From an uncultured delta proteobacterium (GTDB lineage: Bacteria > Desulfobacterota > RBG-13-43-22), in the NCBI GenBank assembly GCA_963743305.1, contig CAVUPH010000010.1:64001-128000 (forward strand): DNA of 64,000 bases. The letters run 5' to 3'. Of the stretch, positions 1,428 to 63,999 are shown in pieces. Below the pieces are notes generated by a model. The model made no database searches, was not told the DNA's origin, and worked only from the letters and a program-made list of their open reading frames with translations. The position numbers and the translations under genes are program-made. Position 1 is the first letter of the stretch. Every line of letters begins with the position of its first letter.

Positions 1428-1441
1428 GGTGGATTAGAACC

Positions 1442-2329
1442 ATGAAATTTGCGCTCTTTATCGGCTGTAACATCCCGGCCCGGGTCGTCCAGTACCTGAC
1501 TTCGGCCCGGGCGGTCCTGGACCGTCTGGGGGTCACCCTGGTGGATTTCCGAGGTTTCGGGTGCTGCGGATACCCTCTGCGGGCATTAGACCAGAATGGC
1601 TATCTCTTGTCCGCGGCCAGGAACCTGGCCATCGCCGAAAAGGCCGGGTTGGATATTCTGGCCCTCTGCAAGTGTTGTTTTGGAAGCCTGAAAAGGGCCG
1701 CCCAGGTCCTGGAGGAAAACCCCTTGCTGGCGGAAGAGGTGAACCGGTTTCTGGGCCGGGAAGGGTTGAAGTACCGAGGCGGCGGTCAGGTGAAACATCT
1801 TCTTTCGGTCCTCTACCAGGATGTGGGTCTGGAGGCCCTTCAGGGAAAAATCATCCAGCCCTATAAGGGACTGAAGATCGCCCCCCAGGTCGGGTGCCAT
1901 GCCCTCCGGCCGAGCCGGATAACCCAATTTGATGATCCCCTCCATCCGGTTATCTTCGACGCCCTGGTCCGGGCGACCGGCGCCGAGAGCCTGGATTGGG
2001 ACAGCCGGCTGGATTGCTGCGGGGCCCCCCTGCTGGGAGTCAACGACGAGGTTTCTCTGAAGCGGACGAGAGACAAGATAAAAAAAAGCCGGGAGGCCGG
2101 GGCCGATTACCTTTGTACGGCCTGTCCCTTCTGTCAGTTGCAGTTTGAGACGGTCCAAAAGAGGTCGCTCTCCTTCGAGGGAGCTGAAGAACCGCCAGCT
2201 CCCATTTTGTATACGCAACTGCTGGGAATCGCGCTGGGCCTCGACCGGAAGTACCTCTGGCCCCAGGGGGATTCCCCGGAGTTTAGCGGGCTTATTCGTT
2301 TTTCAAGTGAGGAATCAAACCATGCCTAA
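1442..2329 (+). CDS. hdrB: Heterodisulfide reductase subunit B (two CCG domains)
   Basis: FIGC, GCCG, CKCC, VGCH, DCCG and ACPFCQLQF motifs. Confidence 0.9.
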
Positions 2330-5300: not shown

Positions 5301-5345
5301 TTTGAGACCGACCAGGTCATGGCCATGATCGAATCGGCCCTCTGA
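2322..5345 (+). CDS. hdrA: Double-length heterodisulfide reductase subunit A-like flavoprotein, selenocysteine-containing (UGA at 2499-2501), ~1007 aa
   Basis: ATG 2322 ([18 protein letters not shown]) is in frame with ORF 2550-5345 across one TGA in [15 protein letters not shown], the conserved Cys position. Two GGGxxG FAD motifs, two CxGSR..YCSxVCC motifs, ferredoxin motifs. Confidence 0.88.
2516..2535 (+). promoter_or_regulatory. Putative bacterial SECIS hairpin
   Basis: GCTGGTCG-AGGT-CGGCCGGC: 8-bp stem (two G-U pairs) with an AGGU loop, starting 14 nt after the UGA. Confidence 0.75.
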
Positions 5346-23261: not shown

Positions 23262-24854
23262 ATGAACCTGTCACAACCGAATTCCAATGAGGCCACACGA
23301 ACGTTCAACCGGTCCAAGAGCGTGGTTCCCATGAGCGGGATCTGCTCCCGGTGTATCGACGGCTGCCGGGGAAACTGCGAGGTCTTCAAAGCCACCTTCC
23401 GCGGCCGGGAGCTGCTCTATCCCGGTCCGTTCGGCGACATTACCGCCGGTGGGGACAAAAATTACCCGCTGGATTATTCCCACCTGAATATCCAGGGTTA
23501 TGCCCTGGGGGCCAAAGGACTCCCCGAGGGGGTGGCAGGTAATCCCGACACGGCCCGCTTTCCTGCGGTCAATACCGAAACGGAATACGGCTGGGACCTG
23601 AAGGTGAAGATGGCCACCCCGGTTTTTACCGGAGCGTTGGGATCCACCGAGATCGCCCGGAAAAACTGGGAACACTTTGCCGTGGGGGCGGCTATCACCG
23701 GTGTAACCATCGTCTGCGGCGAGAACGTCTGCGGGATCGATCCCGGCCTGGAACTGGATAAAAATAATAAGGTCACCCTGGCCCCGGATATGGACCGCCG
23801 CATCGAAACCTATCGCCGCTACTACCGCGGCTACGGCGAGATCCTCATCCAGATGAACGTGGAGGATACCCGGCTCGGGGTGGCCGAATACGTGATCAAC
23901 AAGCACGGGATCGAAACCATCGAGTTGAAATGGGGCCAGGGCGCCAAATGCATCGGCGGGGAAATCAAGGTCAACTCGCTGGAGCGGGCACTCGAACTGC
24001 AGCGTCGGGGTTATATCGTTACCCCTGACCCTTCCAGTTCGGCCAGTCAGGCGGCCTTTAAAAGCGGGTCCATCCAGGAATTCGAACGGCACAGCCGGCT
24101 GGGTTTTATCGATGAGGAAGGTTTTTATGCCGAGTGTGATCGGCTCCGCAAGCTGGGTTTCAAACGCATCACTTTGAAGACCGGGGCCTACGGACTTCGG
24201 GAGTTGGCCATGGCCCTGAAGTGGAGTTCCAAGGCCAAAATCGACCTGCTGACCATCGACGGCGCCCCGGGTGGCACCGGCATGAGCCCCTGGCGGATGA
24301 TGGAAGAATGGGGCCTGCCTTCTCTTTATCTTCATTCCGCCGCCTGCGAGTTTGCGGATGTCTTGGCCAGGCGCGGAGAACGGGTGCCCGACCTGGCCTT
24401 CGCCGGCGGTTTCAGTTCGGAAGACGGGATTTTCAAAGCCCTGGCCCTGGGGGCCCCCTATGTGAAAGCGGTCTGCATGGGCCGAGCCCTGATGATACCG
24501 GGCATGGTCGGGAAAAATATCGAAAAATGGATGGCCGCCAAAGATCTGCCCAAGACGGTCAGCGAATTTGGGACTACGCCGGAGGAGATCTTCGTCAATT
24601 ATGAAGACGTGGCCAACATCGTCGGTAAGGCGGAGATCAAGAAGATTCCGCTGGGAGCTATCGGGATCTACAGCTACGCCAACAAACTGCAGGTCGGCCT
24701 GCAGCAATTGATGGCCGGAGCCCGGTGTTTCAACCTGGCGGCCATCACTCGGAATGAATTGATGTCCCTGACCGAGGAATGCGCCGCGGTTACCGGAATT
24801 CCCTATATCATGGATTGCTACCGGGATGAAGCCATTGCGGTTCTACTAAAATAG
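23262..24854 (+). CDS. FMN-binding glutamate synthase family protein (stand-alone GltB2-like)
   Basis: ELKWGQGAK, TIDGAPGGTGMSP, AFAGG, KALALGAP; N-terminal CSRCIDGCRGNC. Confidence 0.85.
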   Translation: MNLSQPNSNEATRTFNRSKSVVPMSGICSRCIDGCRGNCEVFKATFRGRELLYPGPFGDITAGGDKNYPLDYSHLNIQGYALGAKGLPEGVAGNPDTARFPAVNTETEYGWDLKVKMATPVFTGALGSTEIARKNWEHFAVGAAITGVTIVCGENVCGIDPGLELDKNNKVTLAPDMDRRIETYRRYYRGYGEILIQMNVEDTRLGVAEYVINKHGIETIELKWGQGAKCIGGEIKVNSLERALELQRRGYIVTPDPSSSASQAAFKSGSIQEFERHSRLGFIDEEGFYAECDRLRKLGFKRITLKTGAYGLRELAMALKWSSKAKIDLLTIDGAPGGTGMSPWRMMEEWGLPSLYLHSAACEFADVLARRGERVPDLAFAGGFSSEDGIFKALALGAPYVKAVCMGRALMIPGMVGKNIEKWMAAKDLPKTVSEFGTTPEEIFVNYEDVANIVGKAEIKKIPLGAIGIYSYANKLQVGLQQLMAGARCFNLAAITRNELMSLTEECAAVTGIPYIMDCYRDEAIAVLLK

Positions 24855-50692: not shown

Positions 50693-52369
50693 GTGTCAAT
50701 TATGGATGCCATCATTATTGCGGACGCTGCGTCAGAGAGCGTTTCCGCAACAAATCAAATGAAGCTGACTATCGGTGGGCAGGTATCGACCATTCAAACG
50801 GTCAAAAATTTTCTGGATAATCATGGGCGTGTAGTTCATCCCATAATTGGAGATGGGGTGTCCAGTTGGGGGTCGTCTTTGAAGTTGAACGGCCTCTACC
50901 TTTATAGTTATTTGTCAGGACAGGGATTTGACGTCCAGTTGGTAGATAGTTACTTCGAGGAAAAAGAAAAATTTATTGAAATGCTTAAGCATTCTCCAAA
51001 GGCGGTAGTGATCTCGACTACCTTCATAATTAGCAAAAAGACACTGGAATACCTTGTCCGTGATATCAGGACTGTGGCCCCCGGTATTTTTATCATCGCC
51101 GGTGGCCAGTTTGTGCATCTTTCAAGCAGAATCAGGGAGAGGCAGAAGTCAGATAACCCTATAATGGATATATTTGACAACGATTGTCTTTTCCTCGATG
51201 AGAAGAACGAACCTTCCGTGGATCTTTATATTATCAGCTCCAGTGGAGAAGAAATACTTTCCCAGGCACTGACAATGCTTAGGAAAAAAGGGAAAGTGGA
51301 AGGGCTTCCCAACACCGCTACGTACCAAAGGAAGAAGTACTCCATAGGCAGCAGAGTAGAGGAAAGGGTAAAGGTGGGGGGGATCACTGTGGACTGGAGG
51401 AGAATGCCTGGAGAATTTTTTCAATCCGGGGTTGTTCCACTTCAAGCCAGCTACGGATGTCCTTATAATTGCGCCTTTTGTAATTTTATGAAAGATAGAC
51501 GCCTAATGGGCGTGAAACCGATTGAGGACTTGATTGAGGAATTAAAGATAGTTCAAGAGAGAGGCGCTAGATATGTGTGGTTTGCCGATGACAACTTTCG
51601 GTTGGGGAGAAACGATTTGGAGAGAGTTTGCCAAAAATTTCTTGATTGTGGGATAAACGTGAAGTGGAAAAGTTTCATACGGCCAGGCGCAATGAAAGGC
51701 ATGGACATGGGGATTCTAAAGGCCTCCGGGTGTGTTGAGGTCCAGTTCGGACTTGAGTCGGCTGATCGCTCCATGCTTAAAAGGATGAATAAGAAAGCGA
51801 ACCCGGATCTTTATGCTGAAGTAATAGAAAGGGTATTGAGGGCAGGCATCAATTGCTCTTGTTATTTTATATTCGGCTTCCCCGGAGAGACAGAAAAAAC
51901 GGTCAAGCGGACCCTTGAATTCATTAAAGGCCTCGAGCATCCAGAATTGGATGGTTGTATTTCTTTTTCGATGTTTCCCTTTATTATCGCTCCGTTAAGT
52001 TCTATGTCAGAACCAAAGAGTGCACAGAAGTACGGGCTAAAAGGAAAGAACATGTGCCAGTGGCAGCATCACACGATGAATTCTAAAGAAGCTACGGATC
52101 TTGCTACAAGGGCCTTTTTCGAACTCGAGACTGCTGGGATCATCTACAGTGGTGACAATCTTGACATGTTGTTCGAACTCGACCCTCGGAAAAGGAAAAA
52201 GTTCAATGCCATAAGGCAAGATATGGCCAAGCTGGCGGCAAAGGGGTTATTGAAAGAAATGGACATGTTTGAAGCGTTTGGAAAGAACCTGTTGGAATCG
52301 ACAACCTCCTATTCCCATTCCTCGCTGCCGGTCAGTACCGTCCGTTTCAGCGGCTGGACCGTGCGATAG
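50693..52369 (+). CDS. B12-binding radical SAM protein
   Basis: ISTTF..IIAGG, SYGCPYNCAFC, FADDNF, GLESAD, FIFGFPGET; AT-richer than neighbours. Confidence 0.88.
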   Translation: MSIMDAIIIADAASESVSATNQMKLTIGGQVSTIQTVKNFLDNHGRVVHPIIGDGVSSWGSSLKLNGLYLYSYLSGQGFDVQLVDSYFEEKEKFIEMLKHSPKAVVISTTFIISKKTLEYLVRDIRTVAPGIFIIAGGQFVHLSSRIRERQKSDNPIMDIFDNDCLFLDEKNEPSVDLYIISSSGEEILSQALTMLRKKGKVEGLPNTATYQRKKYSIGSRVEERVKVGGITVDWRRMPGEFFQSGVVPLQASYGCPYNCAFCNFMKDRRLMGVKPIEDLIEELKIVQERGARYVWFADDNFRLGRNDLERVCQKFLDCGINVKWKSFIRPGAMKGMDMGILKASGCVEVQFGLESADRSMLKRMNKKANPDLYAEVIERVLRAGINCSCYFIFGFPGETEKTVKRTLEFIKGLEHPELDGCISFSMFPFIIAPLSSMSEPKSAQKYGLKGKNMCQWQHHTMNSKEATDLATRAFFELETAGIIYSGDNLDMLFELDPRKRKKFNAIRQDMAKLAAKGLLKEMDMFEAFGKNLLESTTSYSHSSLPVSTVRFSGWTVR

Positions 52370-54936
52370 ACCTGTCCAGGGGCCTTGACTTCCCCGGCCA
52401 CGGTTAGAAGATGCTCCTGGATAGCTATCCCGAAGAGGCGTTCGTTCTCTTCCAGATAAGGCCGGATGAGTTCCCAGTCTTTATCGGTAAAAGGCGCCAT
52501 TTCACCTCCGTTGAGCTGTTCGGGAATAATCTTATGGTCCGGGTCGCGGACGAAAATGGCTCCCCCGGAAGCCAGGGAAAAAAGGTTGGAGCCCGGGTAA
52601 GGGGTATCCTGGGGGATGATTTGCCCCTGGGTTTCCACGGTCAGGCCGTTTAAGATAACGAATCCCCCTCCCTGATGGGGATCTCCGGCCATGAAGGATT
52701 CGGCCAGGAAGTCGAGGGCCGTACCGTTGATGATTACTTTAGGGCGCCCAACGGCATTGATCAGCGGGCGTCCGGCGGCGTTGCCCAGCACATAGACCTC
52801 CCCGCCTTTGGCCCCGTATAAAAAAGTCTGGCCCACATCGCCATAAACCACCAGTTTTCCGGATTTGAGGATTTGCCCCAACTGGTCCTGGGCGTTGCCG
52901 TGGACGTAGATTTCCATTCCGTCCATGCCGGAACCCAGGTAATCCCCGGAACTCCCGTAGGCATCAATCCGAACCCCCTGGGTATCCGGGCCCAGACCGT
53001 TGCCCAAGAAGCGCTGCCCGCGGAACCCAAAACCTATAAATCGTTTCCAGCCCAGTTCATAGGCCTTGACCAGCAGCCGGGCATCGCATTCTTCCCCTTC
53101 GGGAGGGAATTTTTCGGCATGGATGACCAGCACCATTTCTTTGCCCCTGGGGGCCCGAAGTTGGTGGCGGTGGTCATAATCGATCCGCAGATAGGTTTTT
53201 CCCTGGGACTCGTGGATTAGGGGTATCTCCAGAAAAATCCGGTCCAGAGCTTCCAGGACCATTTGCAGGATCGAGCGGCGCCGTTTAGAGCCGCTGGGAT
53301 AGCGTTGATCCAGGACCAGGGTCAGCAGTTCCAGGACCTGGGGTTTCAATTTTTCCGCGCGAGCCAATTCCACCAGATAACGGATCCAGGAACCCAGGCG
53401 GCGATAATCGCTCTCGGCCAAAAATGACTTCCAGTCGTTGAACATTCCTGGAATGGGGCCCGAGGTTAACCCTTCTTTAAGCTTCTTCAGAATCCCGGCC
53501 TCCAGCCCGTCATCGGCCATCGGGATCCTAAAATCGTAGGGTTGCCGGTCTTGGGGGACCGTGATCTCCCGGCCGAACTTGTCGTTGCAGGTGAGCTCGA
53601 GGGCGCCTGGGGCTTTTTCCTGGACCGAAAAGATAAACGCCCCGCCGTCGGTGTAGCTTCCTCCCCGGGCGTTCCAATAGCGGTCAGCCACAGTTCCAAA
53701 CCGGGGGTCCTCCCGGGCCAGGCTCTGGAGGGTGGCGTCAATGGCCTGTTTTTCCGAACAGATGAGCCCGATTTCCACCTCCCCTTTTTGTAGGGCAAAG
53801 ACCTGGGGACGCAGCATAGCGGTGTCGGTAATCCCGATCAACTGATATTTCCGTTGGCCGGGCATGTTCCGGGCAATAATAAAGAACCAGGGACCATCCG
53901 GGGAACCATGGATCTGGGTAGCCTGGATCTGACGATAAACCTTTTGTTTTTCGGGTGACAACTGATCGAAGTCCAATTCCGTAGTGGGGGCCAGGGACTC
54001 GATAATGTATTCCAGAGGATACCCATAGACCCGGTTTAACAAATCGAAAACCTGGACCGAAACTTCGGTATCGGTCAGAAACAGGGGGACCACGTTCCGC
54101 TGAAAAAGATATTCACTGACGGAATAGTAATTGGCAAAATCGCCGTTATGGACCAAGGCTTCGTCCATCCCGATAAAGGGATGGGCCCCACCCGGGTGCC
54201 AGACCCTACCTTTGGTTGGATAACGCTGGTGGGCGATCCAGACATGGGCCTTAAAATCTTCCAGACGATAATACTGGGTTACCTGTTCAGCGTAACCGAC
54301 GATTTTCAGAATCATCATGTTCCGACCATGGGACAAGACAAAAGCCCGTTTGTCCCCCAGGGAACTGTAGTAACGCTGATTAAGTTGAAAGGAGTTCTGG
54401 TAGATGAATTCCTCCTCAACTTTTCTGGCCGAAAGCTTGTCCAGACGGCGCTCTTTTTGAAAACGGGCCAGCACTTCGGGCCGGACGCGAACGAAATAGC
54501 GCTTGACCGCCGGGGGTTCCAATTCCAGACCGGGCACGTCCCGGTAGTCGTCCACGGTGGGCAGAAAAGCCTCGTGATCCACCCGGAAGCAGGGGCGGAT
54601 AAATTGTGCCTCCAATTCGGGCAGTACGGTTTTATCCAGCAGGGCAATCTGGTAAAGGAAATCCCCATCCAGGGTGCCCTGGTCCACCCCCAGCTTGGAA
54701 GCTTCCAGCCCCACGGCGGCGATACCTCCGCCTTTACCATTGCCGCGGTTGTGCATCTGCACCGAGGGTTCGAATATATGACGGCCACTAACCGGAATGT
54801 TGCAGGCGAAACCGGTGACCCCGCATCCGCCTTCTTCGGCCTCCGGCCGACGGGGTAAACGCCGTGCCGGATCAAGTTTTTCCAATAAATGAGCCCGCGA
54901 ATGAATCAGGGCCTGTGCGCTTGACTGATAGTTCAT
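52309..54936 (-). CDS. Glutamate synthase amidotransferase (class II GATase) + GXGXG domain subunit
   Basis: EEGG/CGVTG, RGNGKGGG, HQRYPT, HPF, VHNGDFANY, TDTEV; GXGXG repeats GNAQDQ, GDVGQ, GNAAGR. Confidence 0.85.
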   Translation of the reverse strand: MNYQSSAQALIHSRAHLLEKLDPARRLPRRPEAEEGGCGVTGFACNIPVSGRHIFEPSVQMHNRGNGKGGGIAAVGLEASKLGVDQGTLDGDFLYQIALLDKTVLPELEAQFIRPCFRVDHEAFLPTVDDYRDVPGLELEPPAVKRYFVRVRPEVLARFQKERRLDKLSARKVEEEFIYQNSFQLNQRYYSSLGDKRAFVLSHGRNMMILKIVGYAEQVTQYYRLEDFKAHVWIAHQRYPTKGRVWHPGGAHPFIGMDEALVHNGDFANYYSVSEYLFQRNVVPLFLTDTEVSVQVFDLLNRVYGYPLEYIIESLAPTTELDFDQLSPEKQKVYRQIQATQIHGSPDGPWFFIIARNMPGQRKYQLIGITDTAMLRPQVFALQKGEVEIGLICSEKQAIDATLQSLAREDPRFGTVADRYWNARGGSYTDGGAFIFSVQEKAPGALELTCNDKFGREITVPQDRQPYDFRIPMADDGLEAGILKKLKEGLTSGPIPGMFNDWKSFLAESDYRRLGSWIRYLVELARAEKLKPQVLELLTLVLDQRYPSGSKRRRSILQMVLEALDRIFLEIPLIHESQGKTYLRIDYDHRHQLRAPRGKEMVLVIHAEKFPPEGEECDARLLVKAYELGWKRFIGFGFRGQRFLGNGLGPDTQGVRIDAYGSSGDYLGSGMDGMEIYVHGNAQDQLGQILKSGKLVVYGDVGQTFLYGAKGGEVYVLGNAAGRPLINAVGRPKVIINGTALDFLAESFMAGDPHQGGGFVILNGLTVETQGQIIPQDTPYPGSNLFSLASGGAIFVRDPDHKIIPEQLNGGEMAPFTDKDWELIRPYLEENERLFGIAIQEHLLTVAGEVKAPGQVYRTVQPLKRTVLTGSEEWE

Positions 54937-54960: not shown

Positions 54961-56475
54961 TTAGTCGATAACTCCGGTCAGCTCTTCCGGACGAATATAA
55001 TCCAAATGCACCAATAAGTCCCAGCGACCCACCAGGTCCTGGATACGGGTCAATCCCAACCGGCGGAGCAAAAAACGCCATTGTTTCATCCAGGCGGTAT
55101 AGGAATTTATAATCCGCTGGGTACCCCAATCTTGGGTGATCAGCTTGGACAATTCGGGATCGGTGGTGGCGATCCCCCGGGCGCAGCCGCGGCCGGATTC
55201 GCAGTTGTGGCAACGCAGGCATTCCAGGGACACCATGTCCAGCGTGCCCAAACAGATGCCATTGGCGCCCAGGGCGATGATTTTGGCGGCATCGTAAGCC
55301 GTCCGGATCCCTCCGCTGGCAATGATGGTGATTTTATCCCTGATCCCTTCGTCCTTCAGGAACCGGTGAACTTTGGGCACGGCGTACTCCAGGGGCATGG
55401 CGATATTTTTCTTGGCAATGTCCGGGGCGGCGCCGGTTCCGCCATAACTGCCGTCCAACTGCAGAATATGGGCCCCGGCAAAATAGCTGCCCACGGCCAC
55501 CATGTCCACGTCGTTGGGGGTAGACACTTTGACGGAAACCAAAGCTCGGGGATTGATCTCTTTGATCCAATCGATGTGCTTTTTATGGTCCTCTACCGAG
55601 TACACGCTATGAAAGGGAAAAGGAGAAAAAAGGGAACTTCCGACCACGGCCTCCCGCATCCGGGCCACCTCCGGGGTGACTTTATCCCCCAGCAGGTGGC
55701 CGCCCAACCCCGGTTTAGCGCCCTGGGCGTATTTAAACTCCACAATGCGGACCCGTTTAATGGTTTCTTCCCGAACCCCGAAGAGCCCGGTGGCCACCTG
55801 GGTAATGACGTGATCGTCATAAGGGATTAAGTCGTCCGGGAATCCCCCTTCACCGGTACAGCAAAAGGTTCCCCAGGCGGTTGCGGCCCGAACCCGGGAA
55901 AGCATGGAATGGATGCTGACGGAGCCGAAGGACATACCGCCCAAATAAAAGGGAACGGGCAAAGCGACTTGGGGGCGCTCATCCCCGGTCCGGTTGAGCT
56001 CGATACCCAGGGAGATATCTTCCTCCGGAATCTCCCGGGGGGGAACGACGGGGAGCCGAAACCGGATTTTGTCGAAGCCGCCGCCCGAATCTCCGGTTTT
56101 ATAGTTGATATCCTGATAAGGGATCTCCCCGGTTTCGGCCATGTACCAGGTGCTGGCCAATAAATCGGAAGTCCAGCGCTTATCCCCCAGAACCTCAAAA
56201 GAAGGGTTGAGATTCAGGCGAATGGCGTCCCGAGGACAGCGGGACAAACAATAGAATTCATTTTTTTGGCAGGAAGGACCCAGACAGCGATATTCCTGGG
56301 CCACCCGGGGGCGCCGGCTGCCTTTCTGATAAACGCCGTAAGGACAAAGGGTAACACAGAGACCGCAATTATCGCAGTCCGGGGTGATGGTGATCCGGTA
56401 CTTGCTTAAGGCCTGTCGGAAGCGGGAAGGCGTCCGTTTTACTTCAGGGGGAATAAACGGAACGGGGGTGTTCAT
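54961..56475 (-). CDS. Glutamate synthase FMN subunit with N-terminal ferredoxin (GltB2 type)
   Basis: GMSFGS, TGEGG, QVATG, EFKYAQGAKPGLGG, GGTGAAP, ASGGIR, CLRCHNC. Confidence 0.88.
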   Translation of the reverse strand: MNTPVPFIPPEVKRTPSRFRQALSKYRITITPDCDNCGLCVTLCPYGVYQKGSRRPRVAQEYRCLGPSCQKNEFYCLSRCPRDAIRLNLNPSFEVLGDKRWTSDLLASTWYMAETGEIPYQDINYKTGDSGGGFDKIRFRLPVVPPREIPEEDISLGIELNRTGDERPQVALPVPFYLGGMSFGSVSIHSMLSRVRAATAWGTFCCTGEGGFPDDLIPYDDHVITQVATGLFGVREETIKRVRIVEFKYAQGAKPGLGGHLLGDKVTPEVARMREAVVGSSLFSPFPFHSVYSVEDHKKHIDWIKEINPRALVSVKVSTPNDVDMVAVGSYFAGAHILQLDGSYGGTGAAPDIAKKNIAMPLEYAVPKVHRFLKDEGIRDKITIIASGGIRTAYDAAKIIALGANGICLGTLDMVSLECLRCHNCESGRGCARGIATTDPELSKLITQDWGTQRIINSYTAWMKQWRFLLRRLGLTRIQDLVGRWDLLVHLDYIRPEELTGVID

Positions 56476-57860
56476 GAGGCAACTCCTTTTCCCAGGGAGG
56501 CAAAAACATCCGCCTCCAGGTCTTCAAAAAACATGGCCCGGCCCATCTCCCCCCGCAGGCGACGGGCTTCCCGAATTCCCATGGCTCCCATGATCTCCAG
56601 CAGTTGGTTATGCCAGCCGGCCATTAAATTCCTGATCCGGGCTTCCCCCCGAGGCGGATAGATCTGATCGATAGTCACCGGGCAGGGGATGCCGGCGGCG
56701 CAGCGACGGCAAACCCGGCATTCCAGGGCGATCAACAACGGGATGTCCACGGCCACGGCATCGGCCCCGCAGAGGATCAGTTTGGCCAGGTGTTCCGCCA
56801 TGGAGATTCCGCCCCCGGCAATGACGGTAATCTGGTCGCGGACTCCAAAGCGAACCAAGTGGAGGTGGATTTCTTTGATCCGGTCTTTGATATACCAGGG
56901 ATCCTCTCCCTGTTCCCGCCCCAGTTCATTGGCTATGAAATGGAGGATTTCTATCCCGTCTTGGGCCAGTTCCAAGGCCCGTTCGCTGGAACGGGCCGAG
57001 AGGGGTAACCGGACCGCGATGACCGCTTGGGCGTTGATAGCCTTCAATTTCCGCAGGCGTTCCAGGACCCGGGGGCCGTCGGGGATTTCGATCAGACGCA
57101 ATTTCTTGATCAATTCCGGGTCCACGGTTTCCACCGCCTGATTGATATAGAGCAGGACATGGTCCAGGTATTGTTTCAGGCTGGGTTCCCATTCCTGCTG
57201 GGAGATCACCGCAAAGGAGCCGATGCCCCGGGCCCCCCGAAGCAGGGTATGATTGATGCGGTCCCGGGGAGGCGACCAGGGCAGGAGATCGAAAATAATC
57301 GGCAAGGGGATTTCCACCAGGGATTGGGTCGGTGACAGCAGGTTTCCCCGGTCATCGAACTCCAGCGACATCCATTTGCGCCCCAGATCCACTTGGGTAC
57401 TGATATACTCCCGGCCGTGAATCCCGTCCCGGGTCGGCCGGACAATTTCCGACATATCCGTCCACATGGCATCAAAGCCCGGACCGGAGAAAGTCCCTCC
57501 ATACCCGGCCCCGGAAACGGGGATCCTTCCGGTTTCCGCCTGAAACCATAAGGTGGAGATGATTTCGGGGGTCCAATAGGCATCCCCCAGCTTCTTATAT
57601 TCCGGGTTCAGGGATTTGTGGATCAACCGATTGGGGCAGTTCTGGACACAGCGGAAACAGTCTTTACAGAGGCTGTCCAGAGAATCCACCATCAGGCGGG
57701 CATCGAGATTTTTTTTGTCATAAACGCCGTAGACGCAATCCCGCTTCACGCAGCGAGGGCATTTGAGGCAGCCTTCTTCCCAGGCGATCACCCCGGAACG
57801 GGTGATGGTCGGGTAGCGGTTGGGGACGTTGGCCGTTTGAATATGGTACTTCGCTGGCAT
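56472..57860 (-). CDS. Second, degenerate GltB2-like subunit with N-terminal ferredoxin
   Basis: CLKCPRC, CKDCFRCVQNCP, LGDAYWT, GFD, IAGGGI, GADAV, CRVCRRC; lacks MSFG, GEGG and QGAKPG. Confidence 0.75.
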   Translation of the reverse strand: MPAKYHIQTANVPNRYPTITRSGVIAWEEGCLKCPRCVKRDCVYGVYDKKNLDARLMVDSLDSLCKDCFRCVQNCPNRLIHKSLNPEYKKLGDAYWTPEIISTLWFQAETGRIPVSGAGYGGTFSGPGFDAMWTDMSEIVRPTRDGIHGREYISTQVDLGRKWMSLEFDDRGNLLSPTQSLVEIPLPIIFDLLPWSPPRDRINHTLLRGARGIGSFAVISQQEWEPSLKQYLDHVLLYINQAVETVDPELIKKLRLIEIPDGPRVLERLRKLKAINAQAVIAVRLPLSARSSERALELAQDGIEILHFIANELGREQGEDPWYIKDRIKEIHLHLVRFGVRDQITVIAGGGISMAEHLAKLILCGADAVAVDIPLLIALECRVCRRCAAGIPCPVTIDQIYPPRGEARIRNLMAGWHNQLLEIMGAMGIREARRLRGEMGRAMFFEDLEADVFASLGKGVAS

Positions 57861-57890
57861 AACTTAATCCTTTAAAAGCGGTCTTTATTA

Positions 57891-57921
57891 TAGCCAAAAA
57901 TATTGCAAATATTTTTGGCTA
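57891..57921. repeat. 14-bp perfect palindromic hairpin starting at the metF stop codon
   Basis: TAGCCAAAAATATT-GCA-AATATTTTTGGCTA. Confidence 0.7.
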
Positions 57922-58842
57922 GAGGTTCGGTCGGGGGAAAAGGCCCGCGCCTTCCACTATCGGGGGAACGACCTCCTCCCATTCAATGGCCATGATATGG
58001 ACCCCGTGCACGCCCTTCATTTCTTTCAGGGCCTGGATGGTTTCGATACTTATCTTCACGCCCTCCCGACGCTGTTCCTTGGCCGGAACGGCCTTCATCC
58101 GTCGAATGACTTCCTCGGGGATATCCATTCCGGCCACCTTACTATTCATATATTCGGCCATCTTGGACGATTTCAAGGGGGTGATCCCGCCTAAAATATA
58201 GACCTCACGGTCCAGATTGCGCTCCCGCACTTTATCCATCCACTCGGAGAAGCGGGCCAGGTTATAGATGCATTGGGTTTGGATGAACTCCGCCCCGGCC
58301 TTAACCTTTTTGGCCAACCGCAGGACCCGGTACAAAAAAGGGTCGGCAAAGGGATTGGCCGCCGCTCCGATAAACAGGTCCGGGGACACGGTCAGAGGCT
58401 CTCCTCCCAGGACCTGGCCCTGGTCCCGCATCTGCCGGGCGGTGCTGATCAACTGGAGGGAGTCCAGATCGAAGACTCCTCTGGCCTGGGGCTGATTGCC
58501 GAAGGATTGATGGTCCCCGCTCAGGCAGAGGACATTGCGAATTCCCAAGGCCGAGGCCCCCAGGAGGTCCGACTGCAGGGCGATTCGATTCCGGTCCCGG
58601 GTGACCATCTGCAGCACCGGGTCCAGCCCGGCCTGGCGAAGCAGGGTGCAGGCCGCCAGGCTGCTGAGGCGCACCACCCCGGTTTGGTTATCGGTGACGT
58701 TGACGCTGTCCGCGTATCCGGCCAGCAGTTTTCCTTTTTTAAGGATGGCCTCGGGGTCGGCGCCTTTAGGAGGCCCGCACTCGGCGGTGACGGCGAAATG
58801 ATCGGCGGCTAAGACTTTTTTTAACTGGCTTTCCGTTTTCAA
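57919..58842 (-). CDS. metF: Methylenetetrahydrofolate reductase (TTG start overlapping the metV stop)
   Basis: ECGPPKG, NVTDNQ, RDRNRIALQ, LSGDH, KKVKAGAEFIQTQ, GVHIM. Confidence 0.9.
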   Translation of the reverse strand: MKTESQLKKVLAADHFAVTAECGPPKGADPEAILKKGKLLAGYADSVNVTDNQTGVVRLSSLAACTLLRQAGLDPVLQMVTRDRNRIALQSDLLGASALGIRNVLCLSGDHQSFGNQPQARGVFDLDSLQLISTARQMRDQGQVLGGEPLTVSPDLFIGAAANPFADPFLYRVLRLAKKVKAGAEFIQTQCIYNLARFSEWMDKVRERNLDREVYILGGITPLKSSKMAEYMNSKVAGMDIPEEVIRRMKAVPAKEQRREGVKISIETIQALKEMKGVHGVHIMAIEWEEVVPPIVEGAGLFPRPNL

Positions 58843-59507
58843 TTCCTTTGGTCCTCCCTGATGATTTTTCTGGGACCGGTTCCCTGTTGACGCGACCAGT
58901 CCGCGGGGGGGTAAACCGTTTCCAGTTGCGAAAGTCGCCCCGATTCTTCCAGGCGGTCCACAATGAGCTGCCAGGCGCAGGGGACTTCGGGGTCCACTTC
59001 GCATTGGCCGTTCTGAGAGCCCCCGCACGGTCCGTTGAATAATTGCTTGGCACAGCGGGTAATGGGGCAGATATCCCCGAAAAGATGCACCCGGCAGTGG
59101 CCGCAGCCGCGGCAATTCTCCAGCCAAAGTCCCGGCTCCTTGGTTTGTCCTAAAAAGGTGGTGTTCAGGGCCGGCAGAATAGGGATTTTGGGAAAGACTT
59201 CGGCTACGGCTTGTACCCCGGCCCCGCAGGCCAAAGACAGGACGGCCTCGTACTGATCTACCAGACCGGTCAGTTGATCGATGAACTCATAAACGCACTG
59301 GCGTTCCAGGGTCATTTCCCTGGTTTCCAAATCCCGGTTGGTCATGCGGGCTTCCATGCGCAGGGCGGAGGCCAACAACCCGGTTTCCCGCTCGCCGCCG
59401 GCGGCGCATTCGGCCACGCAACTGCCGCAGCCGACCACCAAGATTTTTTGGTAGGGGGAAATCATGGCCAGGATCTCTTCCATGGGTTTTCGTTCGGCGG
59501 TAATCAT
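58839..59507 (-). CDS. metV: MTHFR-associated Fe-S/Zn protein MetV
   Basis: GCGSCVAEC, RQC, ACGAG, CRGCGHC, CPITRCAK..NGPCGG, CAW. Confidence 0.88.
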   Translation of the reverse strand: MITAERKPMEEILAMISPYQKILVVGCGSCVAECAAGGERETGLLASALRMEARMTNRDLETREMTLERQCVYEFIDQLTGLVDQYEAVLSLACGAGVQAVAEVFPKIPILPALNTTFLGQTKEPGLWLENCRGCGHCRVHLFGDICPITRCAKQLFNGPCGGSQNGQCEVDPEVPCAWQLIVDRLEESGRLSQLETVYPPADWSRQQGTGPRKIIREDQRN

Positions 59508-59545
59508 GCTCGGGCTCCAATCAAAAAGATAAAATAGTAAAAAAA

Positions 59546-59965
59546 CTACAACCGGCGCAGGAGCGAATGCCCCTTAACCGGTATCCGGGTCAGGAGTTCC
59601 CGGGTGAGTTGATCGATGGCTTGGGGCAGGGGCGGGCGGGTCATTACCAAAACCAGTCGCTCGGGATCCATTCCGATTTCCTGAATCAACTTTTGGGCGT
59701 ATTGAATCCGCTTCCGGGCGCGGGTGTTGCCTTGCTGGTAGCGGCAGGCTTTTTCAGGGCAGGTGATCAGAAAGACCAGATCCGCCCCCGACTCCATGGC
59801 CCGCAGGAAATGAAGCGATTCAATGCGTCCGCTGCAGGGGAGTGGGAAAAATTTGATTCGCGGGCCCAGTTCTTTTTCTATCACCCGGCGGTTAAGGTCT
59901 TGAGCCGGATCGATCTGCTGGCAGAAAAAAATATCGATTTTCATATCGGACGGATTAGTACTCAT
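59546..59965 (-). CDS. mvhD: MvhD/FlpD-like [2Fe-2S] subunit
   Basis: FFC, LPCSGR, GADLV, CPEKACRY..GN. Confidence 0.88.
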   Translation of the reverse strand: MSTNPSDMKIDIFFCQQIDPAQDLNRRVIEKELGPRIKFFPLPCSGRIESLHFLRAMESGADLVFLITCPEKACRYQQGNTRARKRIQYAQKLIQEIGMDPERLVLVMTRPPLPQAIDQLTRELLTRIPVKGHSLLRRL

Positions 59966-60115: not shown

Positions 60116-61444
60116 CTATAAAATCGGAAGATATTTTTCAAGCTCATAGCGGCTAACATGGGTCCGGTAACGATCCCACTCAATTTCTTTATTCTCGATA
60201 AATTTTTCAAAAATATGGTCTCCGAGGGCCTCCCGGACCAGGGTGCTTTTCTTCACTTCCTGAAGGGCCTCATAGAGATTTCCGGGAAGCGAGTGAATTC
60301 CTCGGGCCTCCCGTTCTTTCTGATTCATTTCATAAATATCTTCTTCAATGGGGTCCGGGATGGGGTACTTGCCCTCGATACCGGCCATTCCGGCGGCCAA
60401 CTGGACGGCGAAAGAAAGATAAGGATTGCAGGCCGGATCGGGCGAGCGGAATTCAATCCGGGTGGCCTGTTCTTTGCCCGGCTTATACATGGGGACCCGG
60501 ATCATGGTGGACCGGTTGCGCCGGGCCCAGGAAACGTAGACCGGGGCCTCGTAACCCGGCACCAGGCGTTTATAGGAATTGACCCATTGGTTGTTGATGG
60601 CCGTCATCTCCCGGGCATGGCGCATCAGCCCGGCGATATAGCCCTTGGCAGTCTCTGAAAGATGAAAAGGATCCCCTGGATTAAAAAAGGCATTTTTAGA
60701 GCCCAGAAACAAGGACTGATGGGTGTGCATGCCGCTGCCGTTGATCCCGAATACGGGTTTGGGCATGAAGGTGGCGTACACCCCATGGCTGCGGGCGATC
60801 TCCTTGACCACGATCCGGTAGGTCATGGTCATGTCGGCCATCTTCAGTCCTTCGGCGTAGCGGAGATCGATTTCATGCTGGCTGGGAGCGACCTCATGGT
60901 GGCTGTACTCTACTCGGATATCCATGGACTGGAGGGCGAAAATCGTGTCTCGCCGCAGGTCACTTCCCAAGTCTATCGGACGGGAGTCAAAGTACCCGCC
61001 CGCGTCCAGAAACCGGGGTTCCCCGTTGTCGGCGAAATAAAAATACTCCAGTTCGGGCCCCACAAAAAACGTATAGCCTTTTTCCATGGCCCGGGCCAGC
61101 AGGCGCTTAAAGGCGAAGCGGGTGTCGCCCGGATAGGGCGTGCCATCGGGCTGCAGAATATCACAGAATAGACGGGCCACCGGCCTCTCTCCCTGACGCC
61201 AGGGGACTAATTGAAAGGTGGTCGGGTCTGGTTTAGCGATCATATCGGACTCTTCGATGCGGGCAAACCCTTCGATCGAAGAGCCGTCAAAGCCCATACC
61301 CTCGATCATCCCCTCCTCCAATTCCGAGGGGGTGACGGCAAAACTTTTCAAAAGGCCCAGGATATCGGTAAACCAGAACTGAATGAAACTGATGTTTTTG
61401 TCCCGAACCAGGCGAAGCACATCTTCGGGTGTTTGACTAAGCAT
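60116..61444 (-). CDS. glnA: Glutamine synthetase type I (short GSI-alpha-like, 442 aa)
   Basis: FDGSSIEGF, GPELEY, HHEVAPSQHEI, FMPKP..NGSGMH, YKRLVPGYEAP, RIEFRSPD; RBS AGGAGG before ATG 61444. Confidence 0.93.
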   Translation of the reverse strand: MLSQTPEDVLRLVRDKNISFIQFWFTDILGLLKSFAVTPSELEEGMIEGMGFDGSSIEGFARIEESDMIAKPDPTTFQLVPWRQGERPVARLFCDILQPDGTPYPGDTRFAFKRLLARAMEKGYTFFVGPELEYFYFADNGEPRFLDAGGYFDSRPIDLGSDLRRDTIFALQSMDIRVEYSHHEVAPSQHEIDLRYAEGLKMADMTMTYRIVVKEIARSHGVYATFMPKPVFGINGSGMHTHQSLFLGSKNAFFNPGDPFHLSETAKGYIAGLMRHAREMTAINNQWVNSYKRLVPGYEAPVYVSWARRNRSTMIRVPMYKPGKEQATRIEFRSPDPACNPYLSFAVQLAAGMAGIEGKYPIPDPIEEDIYEMNQKEREARGIHSLPGNLYEALQEVKKSTLVREALGDHIFEKFIENKEIEWDRYRTHVSRYELEKYLPIL

Positions 61445-61488
61445 GCGGTAGTCCTCCTTAGGCACTAAATTTTTTCCCGATAAGGAGG

Positions 61489-63999
61489 TCATATTAGCTC
61501 ACCGGATACCGAGGATCTACCTTTTTTACGGGTCGGATTGAAAATCTTCTGAAAATGGAGGCGAATATTTTGGGTCACCTTGCGATAATGCCGGTAAAGA
61601 TCCCAGGAAAGGATCGGCACCCGAGGTGCCTGGCCCAAGCCCATTAAATCCAGTTTTTCCAGTCGCTTGATCTCTTCCGGGAGGTAGGTCCGCGGCTCTT
61701 CCCGCCGGTCCAGGAGGAGCTGTAACCCGTGATCCAGGGAGCACAAAAACTGATGTCCGTCCCGCAAAATTAGATAGGTCTCTTCCGTCAGGCCCCCCGT
61801 ATCCCGCAGGGCCTGTAAAACTTTCAAGGTGTTGGTTTGGCGGACCTCGGGAACCTGGAGGCCGTGGAGCCGCTGTAAATATTGGGTGATAAATTCAACG
61901 TCGCTCATGCCCCCATAGCCCAATTTGGGGTTGACCCGTTCGCTCCCTTCCCCGGACCGCTCCACTTCCATACGTTTGCGAAAATACGCCATTTCTTCCC
62001 GAATACCCGCGGGGGCAGGCGTTTGATAGAGAAGCCTCTGAATTTCCTCCCGGATTTTCTGGGCCAGGGGTTCCGGCCCGGCGATCACCCGGGCCTTGAG
62101 CAGCATTTGCAGTTCCCAATTCTGGGCCTGGTGACGGTAATACTCCCGAAAAGATTCCAGGGAAACGACCAGGGGCCCAAAGGTCCCGGAAGGCCTTAAC
62201 CGGGTATCCACCCCATAACCCGGACCTTCCTTGAGGGGCAGAGAGATATATGAAATCAAGCGCTGGGCCAACCGGACCAGATATTCACTCCAGGTTATCC
62301 AGGGACGAGACTCTTTTGACCGAGTGGCCCGCGAAGCGGATTGGGCCTCATCGGGAAAGACGGTCTTTAAGGAATAAACGAACATCAGGTCCAGGTCGGA
62401 GGCATAGCCGAGGTCCTGACCTCCCAATTTCCCCAACCCTAGAATGCAGAAAGGGGCCAAGGGGCGGGCCTTGGAAGATCGGGGATAAATGGGATGAATC
62501 ACTTCCCGACTGAGGGTATCTTCGGCGACCCGGGCGGTTTCCACAATCACTTGGTCCGCCAATAGAGACAATCGTTCGGAGGCCTCGGAGGGATTCAGCC
62601 TCCCGGCCATTTCCTCCAGGGCGATTTCCAGAAAATGCTCGTTTTTCCAGCGGCGCAGCCGGGAGAGGTTGTCTTCCAGGTCCGGGTGCGCCGGTCGTTT
62701 AACCGGCAAGGGACTGGGCCAGTCGGAATAAAAGGAAAAGCCGCTTTCCCGGCGCAGGGCCAGACGATCAACCAGCTCGGGATTCTGGATAAAGAACCGG
62801 GACAGCAGGGTGCTTCGGGCAAACAAATGGAGGATTTCCGTTAACAGGGTGGTCCGTTCCAGGAGCATGGACAATATCCCGGTCCGCCCGCCGAGGCTCC
62901 TCAAAAAAAGGTCCAAAAAATGAAGGGTTTGATCCGGGTCAGGGGTTTGAATAACCCCGTGGAGCAGCGCGGGAACTATTCGGATCAACAATTCTTTTTC
63001 TCTTTGGGCCCGTTGGGAAGAGGCCATGCGTTTTTTCCAAGAAACGAGAATTTCCCGGGCTGCGGCCCATTGGTGAAACCCCAAGGCCGTAAGCGAGGTT
63101 TTCCAATCTTCGGGTTCTTGCGGCTCAAAGAGACGCGAAACTTCCCGGGGAGAAACCGAGTACGGCGCCAGCAGCAGTTGAGCGAAGGTCTGTTGTACCC
63201 CTTCCCGGATCTGGGCCAGTTCGCGAAGCCAGCTTTCCAGGCTCAAGGGTTCCGTTGATTTCCGTCGAGGCATGGACCGGGCCACCTGGTGCAAGGGTCC
63301 GGGTTCCTTGGGCAGGCTATGGGTTTGTCGTTGGTGACGCATTTGGAGACGATGTTCCAAGGTTCGCAAATAGGTATAAGCCTTTACCAGGTGGCGATAT
63401 TCTTCTTTGGGCAGCAGACGGGTCTGATACAGCCGGCGCAGGGCCGCCAAGGTATTTCTTTCTCTAATCGCCGGGAGTCGGCCCCCAAAAACCAACTGCA
63501 GGGCCTGGACGATAAATTCGATTTCCCGAATCCCCCCGGGTCCGAGTTTAATGTTGTTGTCGGCCAGCAGATGGGAACGGGCTTCCTGGAGTATTCGTTC
63601 CTTAAGTCCCCGGATATCCTCCAGAACACTGTAGTCCATTACCCGGCGGTAAACGACCGGTTGGATTCCCTCCAGAAAACGTCGTCCCAAGTCCAGGTTT
63701 CCGGCCACCACTCGGGATTTGATCAAGGCCATCCGTTCCCAGGTCTTAGCCTCCGACTGGTAATATTCCAAGGCATTTTCCAGGCTGAGGGCCAACTCGG
63801 AATCTTTCCCGCCGGGACGGAGGTTTAAATCCACCCGAAAAACCAAATCGCCGTTCATCAGGGCGGCCATGGACTGGGTGATACGCCGGGTCAGGAGTTG
63901 GTAAAATTCCCTTTGCTCGCCAAAAGAAAAGGGAAGGTCCGCCAGGGGTTGATAAAGGAAGATCAGATCGATGTCGGAACTGAAATTCAGTTCCTCCCC
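61489..63999 (-). CDS. glnE: Glutamine synthetase adenylyltransferase (5' end outside the window)
   Basis: ELNFSSDIDL, RVDLNLRPGG, WERMALIK, KLGPGGIREIEF; second NT domain GKLGG..SDLDL, DTRLRPSG. Confidence 0.92.
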   Translation of the reverse strand, partial: GEELNFSSDIDLIFLYQPLADLPFSFGEQREFYQLLTRRITQSMAALMNGDLVFRVDLNLRPGGKDSELALSLENALEYYQSEAKTWERMALIKSRVVAGNLDLGRRFLEGIQPVVYRRVMDYSVLEDIRGLKERILQEARSHLLADNNIKLGPGGIREIEFIVQALQLVFGGRLPAIRERNTLAALRRLYQTRLLPKEEYRHLVKAYTYLRTLEHRLQMRHQRQTHSLPKEPGPLHQVARSMPRRKSTEPLSLESWLRELAQIREGVQQTFAQLLLAPYSVSPREVSRLFEPQEPEDWKTSLTALGFHQWAAAREILVSWKKRMASSQRAQREKELLIRIVPALLHGVIQTPDPDQTLHFLDLFLRSLGGRTGILSMLLERTTLLTEILHLFARSTLLSRFFIQNPELVDRLALRRESGFSFYSDWPSPLPVKRPAHPDLEDNLSRLRRWKNEHFLEIALEEMAGRLNPSEASERLSLLADQVIVETARVAEDTLSREVIHPIYPRSSKARPLAPFCILGLGKLGGQDLGYASDLDLMFVYSLKTVFPDEAQSASRATRSKESRPWITWSEYLVRLAQRLISYISLPLKEGPGYGVDTRLRPSGTFGPLVVSLESFREYYRHQAQNWELQMLLKARVIAGPEPLAQKIREEIQRLLYQTPAPAGIREEMAYFRKRMEVERSGEGSERVNPKLGYGGMSDVEFITQYLQRLHGLQVPEVRQTNTLKVLQALRDTGGLTEETYLILRDGHQFLCSLDHGLQLLLDRREEPRTYLPEEIKRLEKLDLMGLGQAPRVPILSWDLYRHYRKVTQNIRLHFQKIFNPTRKKGRSSVSGELI

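Follow-up and report, generated by a model that had tools for sequence, protein, structure and literature searches.

A glutamate synthase cluster with mvhD, metV and metF in an uncultured deltaproteobacterium points to a tie between one-carbon metabolism and nitrogen assimilation

Background

Glutamate synthase is the main gate through which nitrogen enters biomass, and the electron donors known for it are few. Proteins of the MvhD type have their roles in the methanogen complex MvhAGD-HdrABC and, as FlxD, in FlxABCD-HdrABC. In Moorella thermoacetica, MvhD is part of the type IV methylenetetrahydrofolate reductase (MTHFR), a complex of the composition HdrCBA-MvhD-MetVF (Mock et al. 2014, as summarised in PMC8760232 and PMC6085437), which agrees with what a preliminary description of the DNA treated here had stated. 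Here we analyse a stretch of 64,000 nucleotides, called the window, from an uncultured delta proteobacterium (contig CAVUPH010000010.1, positions 64,001 to 128,000, or C10:64001-128000 of the 4.9-Mb, 43-contig assembly GCA_963743305.1, rated 90% complete and called G000 below). In this window an mvhD-metV-metF block stands directly in front of three glutamate-synthase-like genes, for which we use the names GltBx1, GltBx2 and GltBx3.

Four types of MTHFR are recognised, and a glutamate synthase context is not among them in the accessible part of PMC8760232. Split glutamate synthases of the "archaeal type" include forms with an FrhB-like subunit for which a dependence on F420 has been proposed (PMC9012536). 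MvhD or MetVF in connection with a glutamate synthase was not found described in the open-access PMC and bioRxiv literature, nor was such a link mentioned in the accessible parts of PMC12054007, PMC9012536, PMC5736913, PMC7325909, PMC7117923, PMC2702500, PMC6085437, PMC5606693, PMC5947290 and PMC8760232.

Results

The six genes from mvhD, which comes first, to GltBx3 run from 59965 down to 52309 and occupy 7.66 kb (Table 1). According to the list of open reading frames (ORFs) and to domain scans, glnE, glnA, mvhD, metV, metF and the three gltB-like genes all lie on a single strand, as had been described before. The same holds for the limits of the mvhD-metV-metF block (57919-59965, an exact match), for the 58 bp which the sequence has between metF and the first glutamate synthase gene, and for the lack of an hdr gene adjacent to the block: Hdr homologues were found inside the window by Pfam/NCBIfam scans and homology search at 3-5345 only, about 52 kb from the metVF block. 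A gene for a GltD-type NAD(P)H/FAD subunit was not found between 52309 and 64000, either in the ORF list or by the Pfam/NCBIfam scans. The start codon of metF is a TTG that overlaps the metV stop codon, the overlap of the two genes being 4 nt, and overlaps of the same length exist between GltBx1 and GltBx2 and between glnE and glnA. The remaining spacers measure 150 bp (glnA-mvhD, 24% G+C), 38 bp (mvhD-metV) and 24 bp (GltBx2-GltBx3). Because of this tight spacing with its two 4-nt overlaps we read the six genes as an operon. Tentatively, and as a plausible rather than a probable explanation, we propose that it encodes one multi-subunit, GltD-less, glutamine-dependent glutamate synthase which would be fed by MvhD-MetV-MetF.

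A first sample of related loci consisted of the GltBx1 loci of 26 relatives and of the best 80 of at least 576 relatives in species-representative genomes. It comprised 105 loci after removal of one duplicate, 87 of them with at least 2600 bp of upstream DNA. In 86 of these 87 loci mvhD is located upstream of GltBx1 on the same strand, directly or via metV-metF, a frequency far above anything expected by chance. In 63 loci the genes stand exactly as mvhD-metV-metF-GltBx1, and some met gene is present in the cluster in 78 of the 87 loci, so the metVF-gltB linkage noted in the window is kept among relatives. The other arrangements are mvhD-metV-GltBx1 without metF (six loci), mvhD alone before GltBx1 (five), mvhD upstream together with metV-metF after GltBx3 (four), mvhD upstream with hdr genes and no met gene downstream (three) and six single cases, namely L032, the sole locus without mvhD, and five loci with mvhD plus met and/or hdr genes. 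GltBx3 following GltBx2 is conserved in relatives, too. The gene calls were confirmed by Pfam in eight representative loci, for which 40 of 66 ORFs were scanned. The closest named record is that of Deltaproteobacteria bacterium RBG_13_43_22, which has a GltBx1 76% identical to that of the window and by kinship belongs to the same family.

Since the first sample favours close relatives of the query, a second one was taken from 401 genomes drawn evenly from the phylum. With a cut-off of E <= 1e-100, GltBx1 was found in 112 of them (88 of 339 high-quality genomes; 70 of 254 genera). From the 92 new GltBx1-positive genomes 60 loci were fetched, taken down the E-value list blind to context, and annotated with profile hidden Markov models. 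A redox gene stands directly upstream of GltBx1 in all 60. In 50 loci the slot is held by MvhD, with or without MetV/MetF, including 32 with MvhD-MetV-MetF (hdr genes near four of these), three with MvhD-MetV and one with MvhD-MetF and HdrC-HdrB-HdrA downstream. The slot was cut at MetF or MetV by a contig end in three cases, and seven loci (L177-L182, L188) have a GlcD/GlcF-like FAD and iron-sulfur gene there. Nearly every GltBx1 locus examined is thus connected to MvhD, whether or not MetVF or Hdr is present, within two samples that overlap (e.g. L034/L136 and L081/L157) and consist of related, hence not independent, genomes. By their submitters' labels, the carriers belong to Thermodesulfobacteriota, Nitrospirota, Spirochaetota, Planctomycetota, Armatimonadota and Candidatus Omnitrophota; all records encountered were assembled from metagenomes. 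Other nitrogen genes occur near the cluster as well: of 71 loci, 27 have a glnA on the same strand at a distance of at most 6 kb before GltBx1 and 7 have a glnE upstream, and amtB-glnB-glnA or guaA-pyrG-nadE stand upstream in single loci. The sister species G002, with proteins that are 96-99% identical, has mvhD immediately after glnE (L007:4243-7427), and the glnA of G000 and of its relative G003 is missing.

The input slot in front of GltBx1 thus accepts different modules, MvhD with or without MetVF or a GlcD/GlcF-like one. In L032 a 616-aa protein with FAD_binding_4, FAD-oxidase_C and Fer4_8 domains is encoded directly upstream of GltBx1. In genome G031 a single 2531-aa protein, encoded beside glnA (L133:7105-14700 (+)), consists of GlcD-like FAD, GlcF-like iron-sulfur, GltBx1, GltBx2, amidotransferase and GXGXG parts in this order, with the flavoprotein module at the N-terminus. 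From this fusion it follows that GltBx1, GltBx2 and GltBx3 are parts of one enzyme; together with the L032 gene it makes a substrate-oxidising flavoprotein with iron-sulfur clusters a natural occupant of the GltBx1 end. By analogy, MetF as the flavoprotein and MetV and MvhD as the iron-sulfur proteins would be the input module in the window. D-2-hydroxyglutarate was considered as the fuel of the GlcD variant, for which the NCBIfam resemblance to YdiJ is weak (27.5 bits, cut-off 1350). GltBx1 and GltBx2 are very commonly fused in proteins of about 960-1070 aa; a search at E <= 1e-10, in which 8000 candidates were scored, gave 1050 matches.

For two of the three glutamate synthase subunits a role can be proposed from homology. 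GltBx2 aligns to the flavin mononucleotide (FMN) domain of the alpha subunit of Azospirillum brasilense glutamate synthase (GltS; 2vdc_A, 848-1169, E 5.5e-48), including the KxAQGAKPGxGG and GGTGA segments, and would reduce 2-iminoglutarate at its FMN. GltBx3 matches the GXGXG family (PF01493) with 56.2 bits at a cut-off of 32.5 and the amidotransferase family PF13522 with 23.9 bits, below the cut-off of 27. It would hydrolyse glutamine, and Cys38 within a GGCGV motif at residues 36-40, presumably exposed by removal of a propeptide, is the candidate nucleophile.

GltBx1 is different. It is collinear with its paralogue GltBx2, to which it is 25% identical, and both carry an N-terminal two-cluster ferredoxin domain. 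However, GltBx1 does not have the KYAQGAKPG...HSVYSVED stretch and the GGTGA motif of GltBx2. Its match to PF01645 is restricted to profile positions 259-368, and a profile of 55 orthologues matches GltS over residues 978-1163 only. The AlphaFold2 model (mean predicted local distance difference test score, pLDDT, of 80) has the GltS FMN domain as its best match (1ea0_A 782-1182: Z 22.6, root-mean-square deviation 3.5 A over 307 residues), whereas the barrels of inosine monophosphate dehydrogenase and flavocytochrome b2 score Z 19.9 at most. The protein keeps two ferredoxin-type Cys motifs and a C-x2-C-x2-C-x5-C motif. Furthermore, an invariant 40-residue motif at 114-153 (IPVSGAGY...MWTDMSEIVRPTRDGIHGREYI), modelled at pLDDT below 60, may be an interface. 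Judged from sequence and model, we propose GltBx1 as a putative non-catalytic electron-entry and scaffold subunit. An assignment of GltBx1 to the GltS "central domain", considered as fusions carry PF04898, was rejected, for the model fits the FMN domain and the sequence is collinear with GltBx2.

In an alignment of the window MvhD with 52 of 89 references, residues C15, C44, C69 and C74 are invariant in all 53 cluster-linked homologues. MetF is a full-length PF02219 barrel which aligns over its entire length to the Thermus MTHFR (1v93/3apt), with the EcgPPK, lsGD and TQ segments matched. Its residues E22 (kept in 65 of 65 cluster-linked orthologues), D111 (67 of 67) and Q191 (67 of 67) correspond to Glu28, Asp120 and Gln183 of the Escherichia coli enzyme, which we take to be acid/base and flavin-contact residues.

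A first tree of MetF (82 rows, quick search; long branches make its placements unsure) placed the MetF of the mvhD-metV-metF-GltBx1 loci in one group of 69 rows (Shimodaira-Hasegawa-like approximate likelihood ratio test, SH-aLRT, 81), with the host's two close hdrA-linked copies outside it. The MetF encoded downstream of GltBx3 (L047, L053, L070, L078) grouped with the host's divergent hdrL-linked MetF (support 95), that of the MetV-less type (L102, L106, L112) formed a separate long-branched group (support 97) and that of L081 fell together with yet another paralogue (support 100); such other, divergent lineages seem to have been recruited independently to other versions of the cluster. For a second tree 19 MetF from hdrA-mvhD-metV-metF loci of relatives were added and 13 divergent or long-branched rows dropped (L102, L106, L112, L081, C8_49148, C10_53243, L070, L047, L078, L053, the canonical C18 copy, L103 and L087), which set 67 cluster-linked MetF against 16 hdrA-linked and three other ones. 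On the free tree the 67 need two label changes; the tree constrained to one cluster-linked clade has a log-likelihood 8.65 higher (p of the approximately unbiased test 0.64). The alignment is compatible with a single clade of cluster-linked MetF apart from the hdrA-linked copies, and by this result the lineage would be old and distinct.

The host genome contains six MTHFR matches and four mvhD-metV-metF sets, and the three sets other than that of the cluster each adjoin an hdrA of their own. Their MetF proteins are 33-63% identical to the cluster MetF (56-63% for the close paralogues) and their MetV proteins 50-54% identical to the cluster MetV. About 10 kb upstream of the window and its HdrA lies a full hdrC-hdrB-hdrL-mvhD-metV-metF set (C10:46-58 kb; positions 2006-13573 of L135, which is G000:C10:44001-64000). 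It ends in a divergent metF followed by HdrA-like ORFs, the last with a fused MvhD domain, and its hdrL product of 1498 aa joins a Fer4_20/GltD-like part to HdrA. The mvhD of this set (L135:8117-8617 (+)) has an in-frame TGA; the residue, U75, is aligned to C69 of the cluster MvhD and is probably a selenocysteine, where the glutamate-synthase-linked copy has Cys. Three HdrA genes of the genome stand without an adjacent mvhD, and that at 3-5345, which the preliminary description had called mvhD-less, is indeed one of them; conversely, two mvhD genes, the one of the cluster included, have no adjacent HdrA. The unit at 3-5345 is a membrane HdrC-HdrB-HdrA unit whose membrane-type HdrC begins before window position 1. 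It is directly preceded by a gene for a GAF-ANTAR antitermination-type regulator (L135:18669-19370 (+)). In the genomes of the same family, G001-G020, there are 2 to 12 MTHFR-family matches each; judged from these counts, their MetF paralogues are unusually expanded, mostly in hdrA-mvhD-metV-metF sets.

The host also has a second glutamate synthase locus (C32:89000-99000, L134) of the order glnA-GATase-GXGXG-FMN-Pyr_redox_2-ferredoxin, where GATase denotes the glutamine amidotransferase. Its products measure 299 aa (amidotransferase), 234 aa (GXGXG), 419 aa (FMN subunit, without a ferredoxin domain), 409 aa (Pyr_redox_2) and 167 aa (ferredoxin). The Pyr_redox_2 gene accompanies only this locus and not that of the window.

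The spacer between metF and GltBx1 contains a hairpin at 57891-57921, which had been described before and was found again by folding. It has a 14-bp A+T-rich stem (centroid -14.6 kcal/mol, z -2.2) and overlaps the metF stop codon. It is not followed by a U-tract, and scans for terminators and sigma-70 promoters gave no call in the spacers, this hairpin included. Moreover, it is kept in G002 and missing in the sister species G003, where the spacer has 18 bp. These features argue against a separation of two transcripts at this site, which had been considered in the preliminary description. In G002 the spacer (L007:9060-9215) holds the same hairpin and a further palindromic insert, about 100 bp long; it has the look of an insertion site for small palindromic elements. 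Eight RNA runs contained at most 9% of words each, and contigs from four of them are mostly 85-95% alike and therefore derive from relatives; neither transcription into one RNA nor the strength of expression can be demonstrated by them. One contig, from a close relative (run X3), differs at 4 of 236 aligned letters and joins metF to GltBx1, with 57920 joined to 57872 and 4 other letters replacing 47 nt; another, from the RNA library of a relative (run X1), joins glnA to mvhD. These two contigs are a weak hint of co-transcription. Matches to the sigma-54 consensus numbered 19 in the window, 21.9 being expected, with none between glnA and mvhD. The Rfam scan found no family in the spacers; one match to 2dG-II opposite gltBx3 (28.4 bits, gathering score 60) was taken as chance.

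Table 1. Features of the cluster and their positions in the window
Feature	Position	Strand	Description
glnE	61489-63999	(-)	PF03710 + PF08335; glutamine synthetase adenylyltransferase; 5' end open, beyond the window
glnA	60116-61492	(-)	PF00120 + PF03951; glutamine synthetase
mvhD	59546-59965	(-)	PF02662, E 1.4e-22, 80.5 bits; 139-aa MvhD/FlpD-type [2Fe-2S] protein
metV	58839-59507	(-)	PF12225, E 6e-36; 222-aa iron-sulfur/zinc subunit of MetVF-type methylenetetrahydrofolate reductase
metF	57919-58842	(-)	PF02219, E 8.7e-39, 134 bits; 307-aa methylenetetrahydrofolate reductase flavoprotein
metF-GltBx1 spacer	57861-57918	(-)	58 bp
GltBx1	56472-57860	(-)	462 aa; ferredoxin domain + partial PF01645 match
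GltBx2	54961-56475	(-)	504 aa; ferredoxin domain + PF01645, 290.6 bits
GltBx3	52309-54936	(-)	875 aa; GATase_6 + GXGXG parts

Downstream of GltBx3 follows a convergent radical-SAM/B12 gene. A 530-aa ORF elsewhere in the window (23262-24854 (+)) matches Glu_synthase (PF01645) in part, over profile positions 198-309 with 56.5 bits, and is a further relative of the FMN barrel, unlinked to the glutamate synthase cluster.

Discussion

We infer a physical complex, a path and a direction of electron flow as follows. MetF, by its flavin, would oxidise methyltetrahydrofolate (methyl-THF) to methylene-THF, and the electrons would pass over the [4Fe-4S] clusters of MetV and the [2Fe-2S] cluster of MvhD to the clusters of GltBx1 and GltBx2 and finally to FMN. 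GltBx1, as a degenerate copy of the FMN subunit with a ferredoxin domain and a four-Cys motif, would serve as the entry port. Glutamate synthase works in the reductive direction only, and the gene that can replace the module in the slot codes for a dehydrogenase; therefore, oxidation of methyl-THF is favoured as the electron source. If the methylene-/methyl-THF couple is put at about -200 mV and the amination of 2-oxoglutarate at about -140 mV or above, glutamate synthesis driven by methyl-THF would be allowed. The host genome also has an acetyl-CoA synthase, which makes methyl-THF a central metabolite, and this enzyme was found in 13 of 18 relatives with a MetVF-type cluster. Comparative genomics lends most support to the reading, also suggested in the preliminary description, that MvhD, MetV and MetF supply the GltD-less glutamate synthase: the conserved linkage, the several MetF lineages and the exchangeable slot with its fusion all speak for the supply, and the direction of the electrons is a deduction. 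The farther-reaching claim, a new class of glutamate synthase with methyl-THF, supplied by an integral MetFV-MvhD module, instead of NAD(P)H, ferredoxin or F420H2 as the reductant and with electron-bifurcating Hdr versions, is possible, if on the doubtful side.

Several points weigh against this supply by MvhD, MetV and MetF. The thermodynamic argument depends on the redox potentials assumed. To our knowledge, all MvhD-type proteins characterised so far dock onto HdrA. About one cluster in four lacks MetVF, and in 14 of the 60 loci of the phylum sample MvhD stands upstream without MetV or MetF there (two of the 14 have met and hdr genes downstream); MetVF must thus be dispensable in cis, with another donor in those genomes. 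Some hdr gene accompanies the cluster in 7 of these 60 loci, and the first sample has 8 such cases among its 105 loci. Acetyl-CoA synthase was not found in five of the 18 genomes with a MetVF-type cluster, one of which, G013, is rated 100% complete; the co-occurrence is not decisive, because the other four misses come from genomes less than 85% complete. Among the 120 listed of the 1050 longer GltBx1 relatives there was no MvhD, MetV or MetF domain. Finally, purified MetVF enzymes use reduced ferredoxin, in the direction of methyl-THF, in vitro, according to the accessible part of PMC8760232.

In view of the gaps in MetVF, the hdr genes in a minority of loci, the use of ferredoxin and the acetyl-CoA synthase count, docking of MvhD to an HdrA encoded elsewhere is a serious rival, which we nevertheless consider unlikely. 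It would be the membrane HdrCBA at 3-5345, a pairing also put forward in the preliminary description, or another orphan HdrA, and would give an Hdr-MvhD-MetVF-glutamate synthase super-complex with flavin-based electron bifurcation or confurcation, in which the role of high-potential acceptor would fall to methylene-THF and/or 2-oxoglutarate plus glutamine. The orphan HdrA and mvhD genes of the host and the close paralogy of its cluster-linked and hdrA-linked MetF would fit, as would the notion that the Moorella type IV enzyme needs a second, still unidentified acceptor (accessible part of PMC8760232). Moreover, hdr genes do lie before or after the cluster in some genomes. HdrA-MvhD-MetV(-MetF) follows GltBx3 in L021, L096 and L147, and HdrC-HdrB is near the cluster in L102 and L112. 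MetF-HdrC(membrane)-HdrB-HdrA occurs in L081/L157, judged to be the same genome and the only one sampled with a membrane-type Hdr beside the cluster. Two MvhD genes are present in L171 and L172 (HdrA-MvhD-MetV-MetF-MvhD-GltBx1-x2-x3) and in L173 (HdrA-MvhD-MetV-MvhD-MetF-GltBx1-x2, ending there), the three loci being from G095, G058 and G065; here Hdr and the glutamate synthase may each have an MvhD of their own. However, the fetched DNA of 53 of the 60 phylum loci has no hdr gene, and the GlcD/GlcF-type variants need no Hdr. The host's three other mvhD-metV-metF sets each have their own hdrA, so adjacency appears to be the rule where Hdr is the partner, and for the membrane HdrCBA in particular a complete set is at hand about 10 kb upstream.

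It is rather improbable that reduced ferredoxin is the donor via the ferredoxin domains of GltBx1 and GltBx2, with MvhD, MetV and GltBx1 as a shared iron-sulfur hub. Methylene-THF would then be reduced at MetF and 2-iminoglutarate at GltBx2, i.e. two uncoupled reductases on one wire. The two-cluster domains on both subunits and the clusters with MvhD alone would agree with such a hub, and so would the in vitro oxidation of reduced ferredoxin by MetVF enzymes, as given in the accessible part of PMC8760232. Yet this explanation accounts neither for the persistence of an operon of MTHFR and glutamate synthase across phyla nor for the recruitment of several MetF lineages, and a substrate-oxidising GlcD-like dehydrogenase can occupy the same slot, even as a fusion. 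That the products do not interact at all, mvhD-metV-metF being a spare MTHFR copy that shares promoter or regulation with the nitrogen genes or stands there by chance, is very improbable: the six MTHFR matches and four sets of the host do make the copies mobile, and the 150-bp A+T-rich spacer and the 58-bp hairpin spacer would permit separate control, but the mvhD-GltBx1 adjacency and the exact gene order are kept as described above, spacers are 13-35 bp long in many relatives and the cluster-linked MetF is compatible with a clade of its own.

Coming back to the supply of the glutamate synthase by MvhD, MetV and MetF, the cluster points to an undescribed enzyme complex which ties one-carbon metabolism to nitrogen assimilation. 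If the products form one complex, this would be a new way of powering nitrogen assimilation in anaerobes of sediments and the subsurface, a fifth context beside the four recognised MTHFR types and a concrete partner of MvhD outside Hdr. In anaerobes with the Wood-Ljungdahl pathway the C1 pool would then directly bear the cost of ammonium assimilation, and 2-oxoglutarate plus glutamine would become a candidate for the second substrate that has long been sought for MTHFR complexes of the Hdr type. There are consequences for annotation, too. At present GltBx1 is annotated as "glutamate synthase-related" or as "alpha-hydroxy-acid oxidizing protein", and the MetF of the cluster enters metabolic reconstructions as an enzyme of the Wood-Ljungdahl pathway.

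Compared with the type IV MTHFR, the cluster has the same mvhD-metV-metF block, with PF02219 beside PF12225 and an MvhD with four conserved Cys. Unlike there, hdrA, hdrB or hdrC are not adjacent, a three-gene glutamate synthase stands in the place of Hdr, and the MetF lineage is compatible with a clade apart from the hdrA-linked copies. It is the hdrC-hdrB-hdrL-mvhD-metV-metF set upstream of the window that resembles the Moorella set and is complete. The window MvhD is, like MvhD and FlxD (HdrA structure 5ODC), a small four-Cys PF02662 protein encoded beside the redox enzyme it would serve; unlike in MvhAGD-HdrABC and FlxD systems, its conserved neighbour is a glutamate synthase subunit and not HdrA or a hydrogenase.

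On the side of the glutamate synthases, FMN and GXGXG parts are shared with GltBD (A. brasilense; 1EA0, 2VDC, 6S6S) and with the ferredoxin-dependent enzyme (Synechocystis; 1LLW, 1OFD), and GltBx3 adds a part that resembles their amidotransferase. In contrast to both, the window enzyme is divided among three genes with another domain order, has an additional degenerate FMN-domain subunit and carries N-terminal ferredoxin domains; it is without GltD and has MvhD-MetVF encoded in front. A further difference is its C-x2-C-x2-C-x5-C motif, which stands where GltS has the [3Fe-4S] motif. With the split archaeal-type enzymes, to which the host's own C32 locus belongs, it has in common the separated pieces and a swappable electron-input subunit. 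It differs from these by the extra GltBx1, by the fusion of GATase to GXGXG and by an input through MvhD, with or without MetVF, instead of a pyridine-nucleotide or F420 module.

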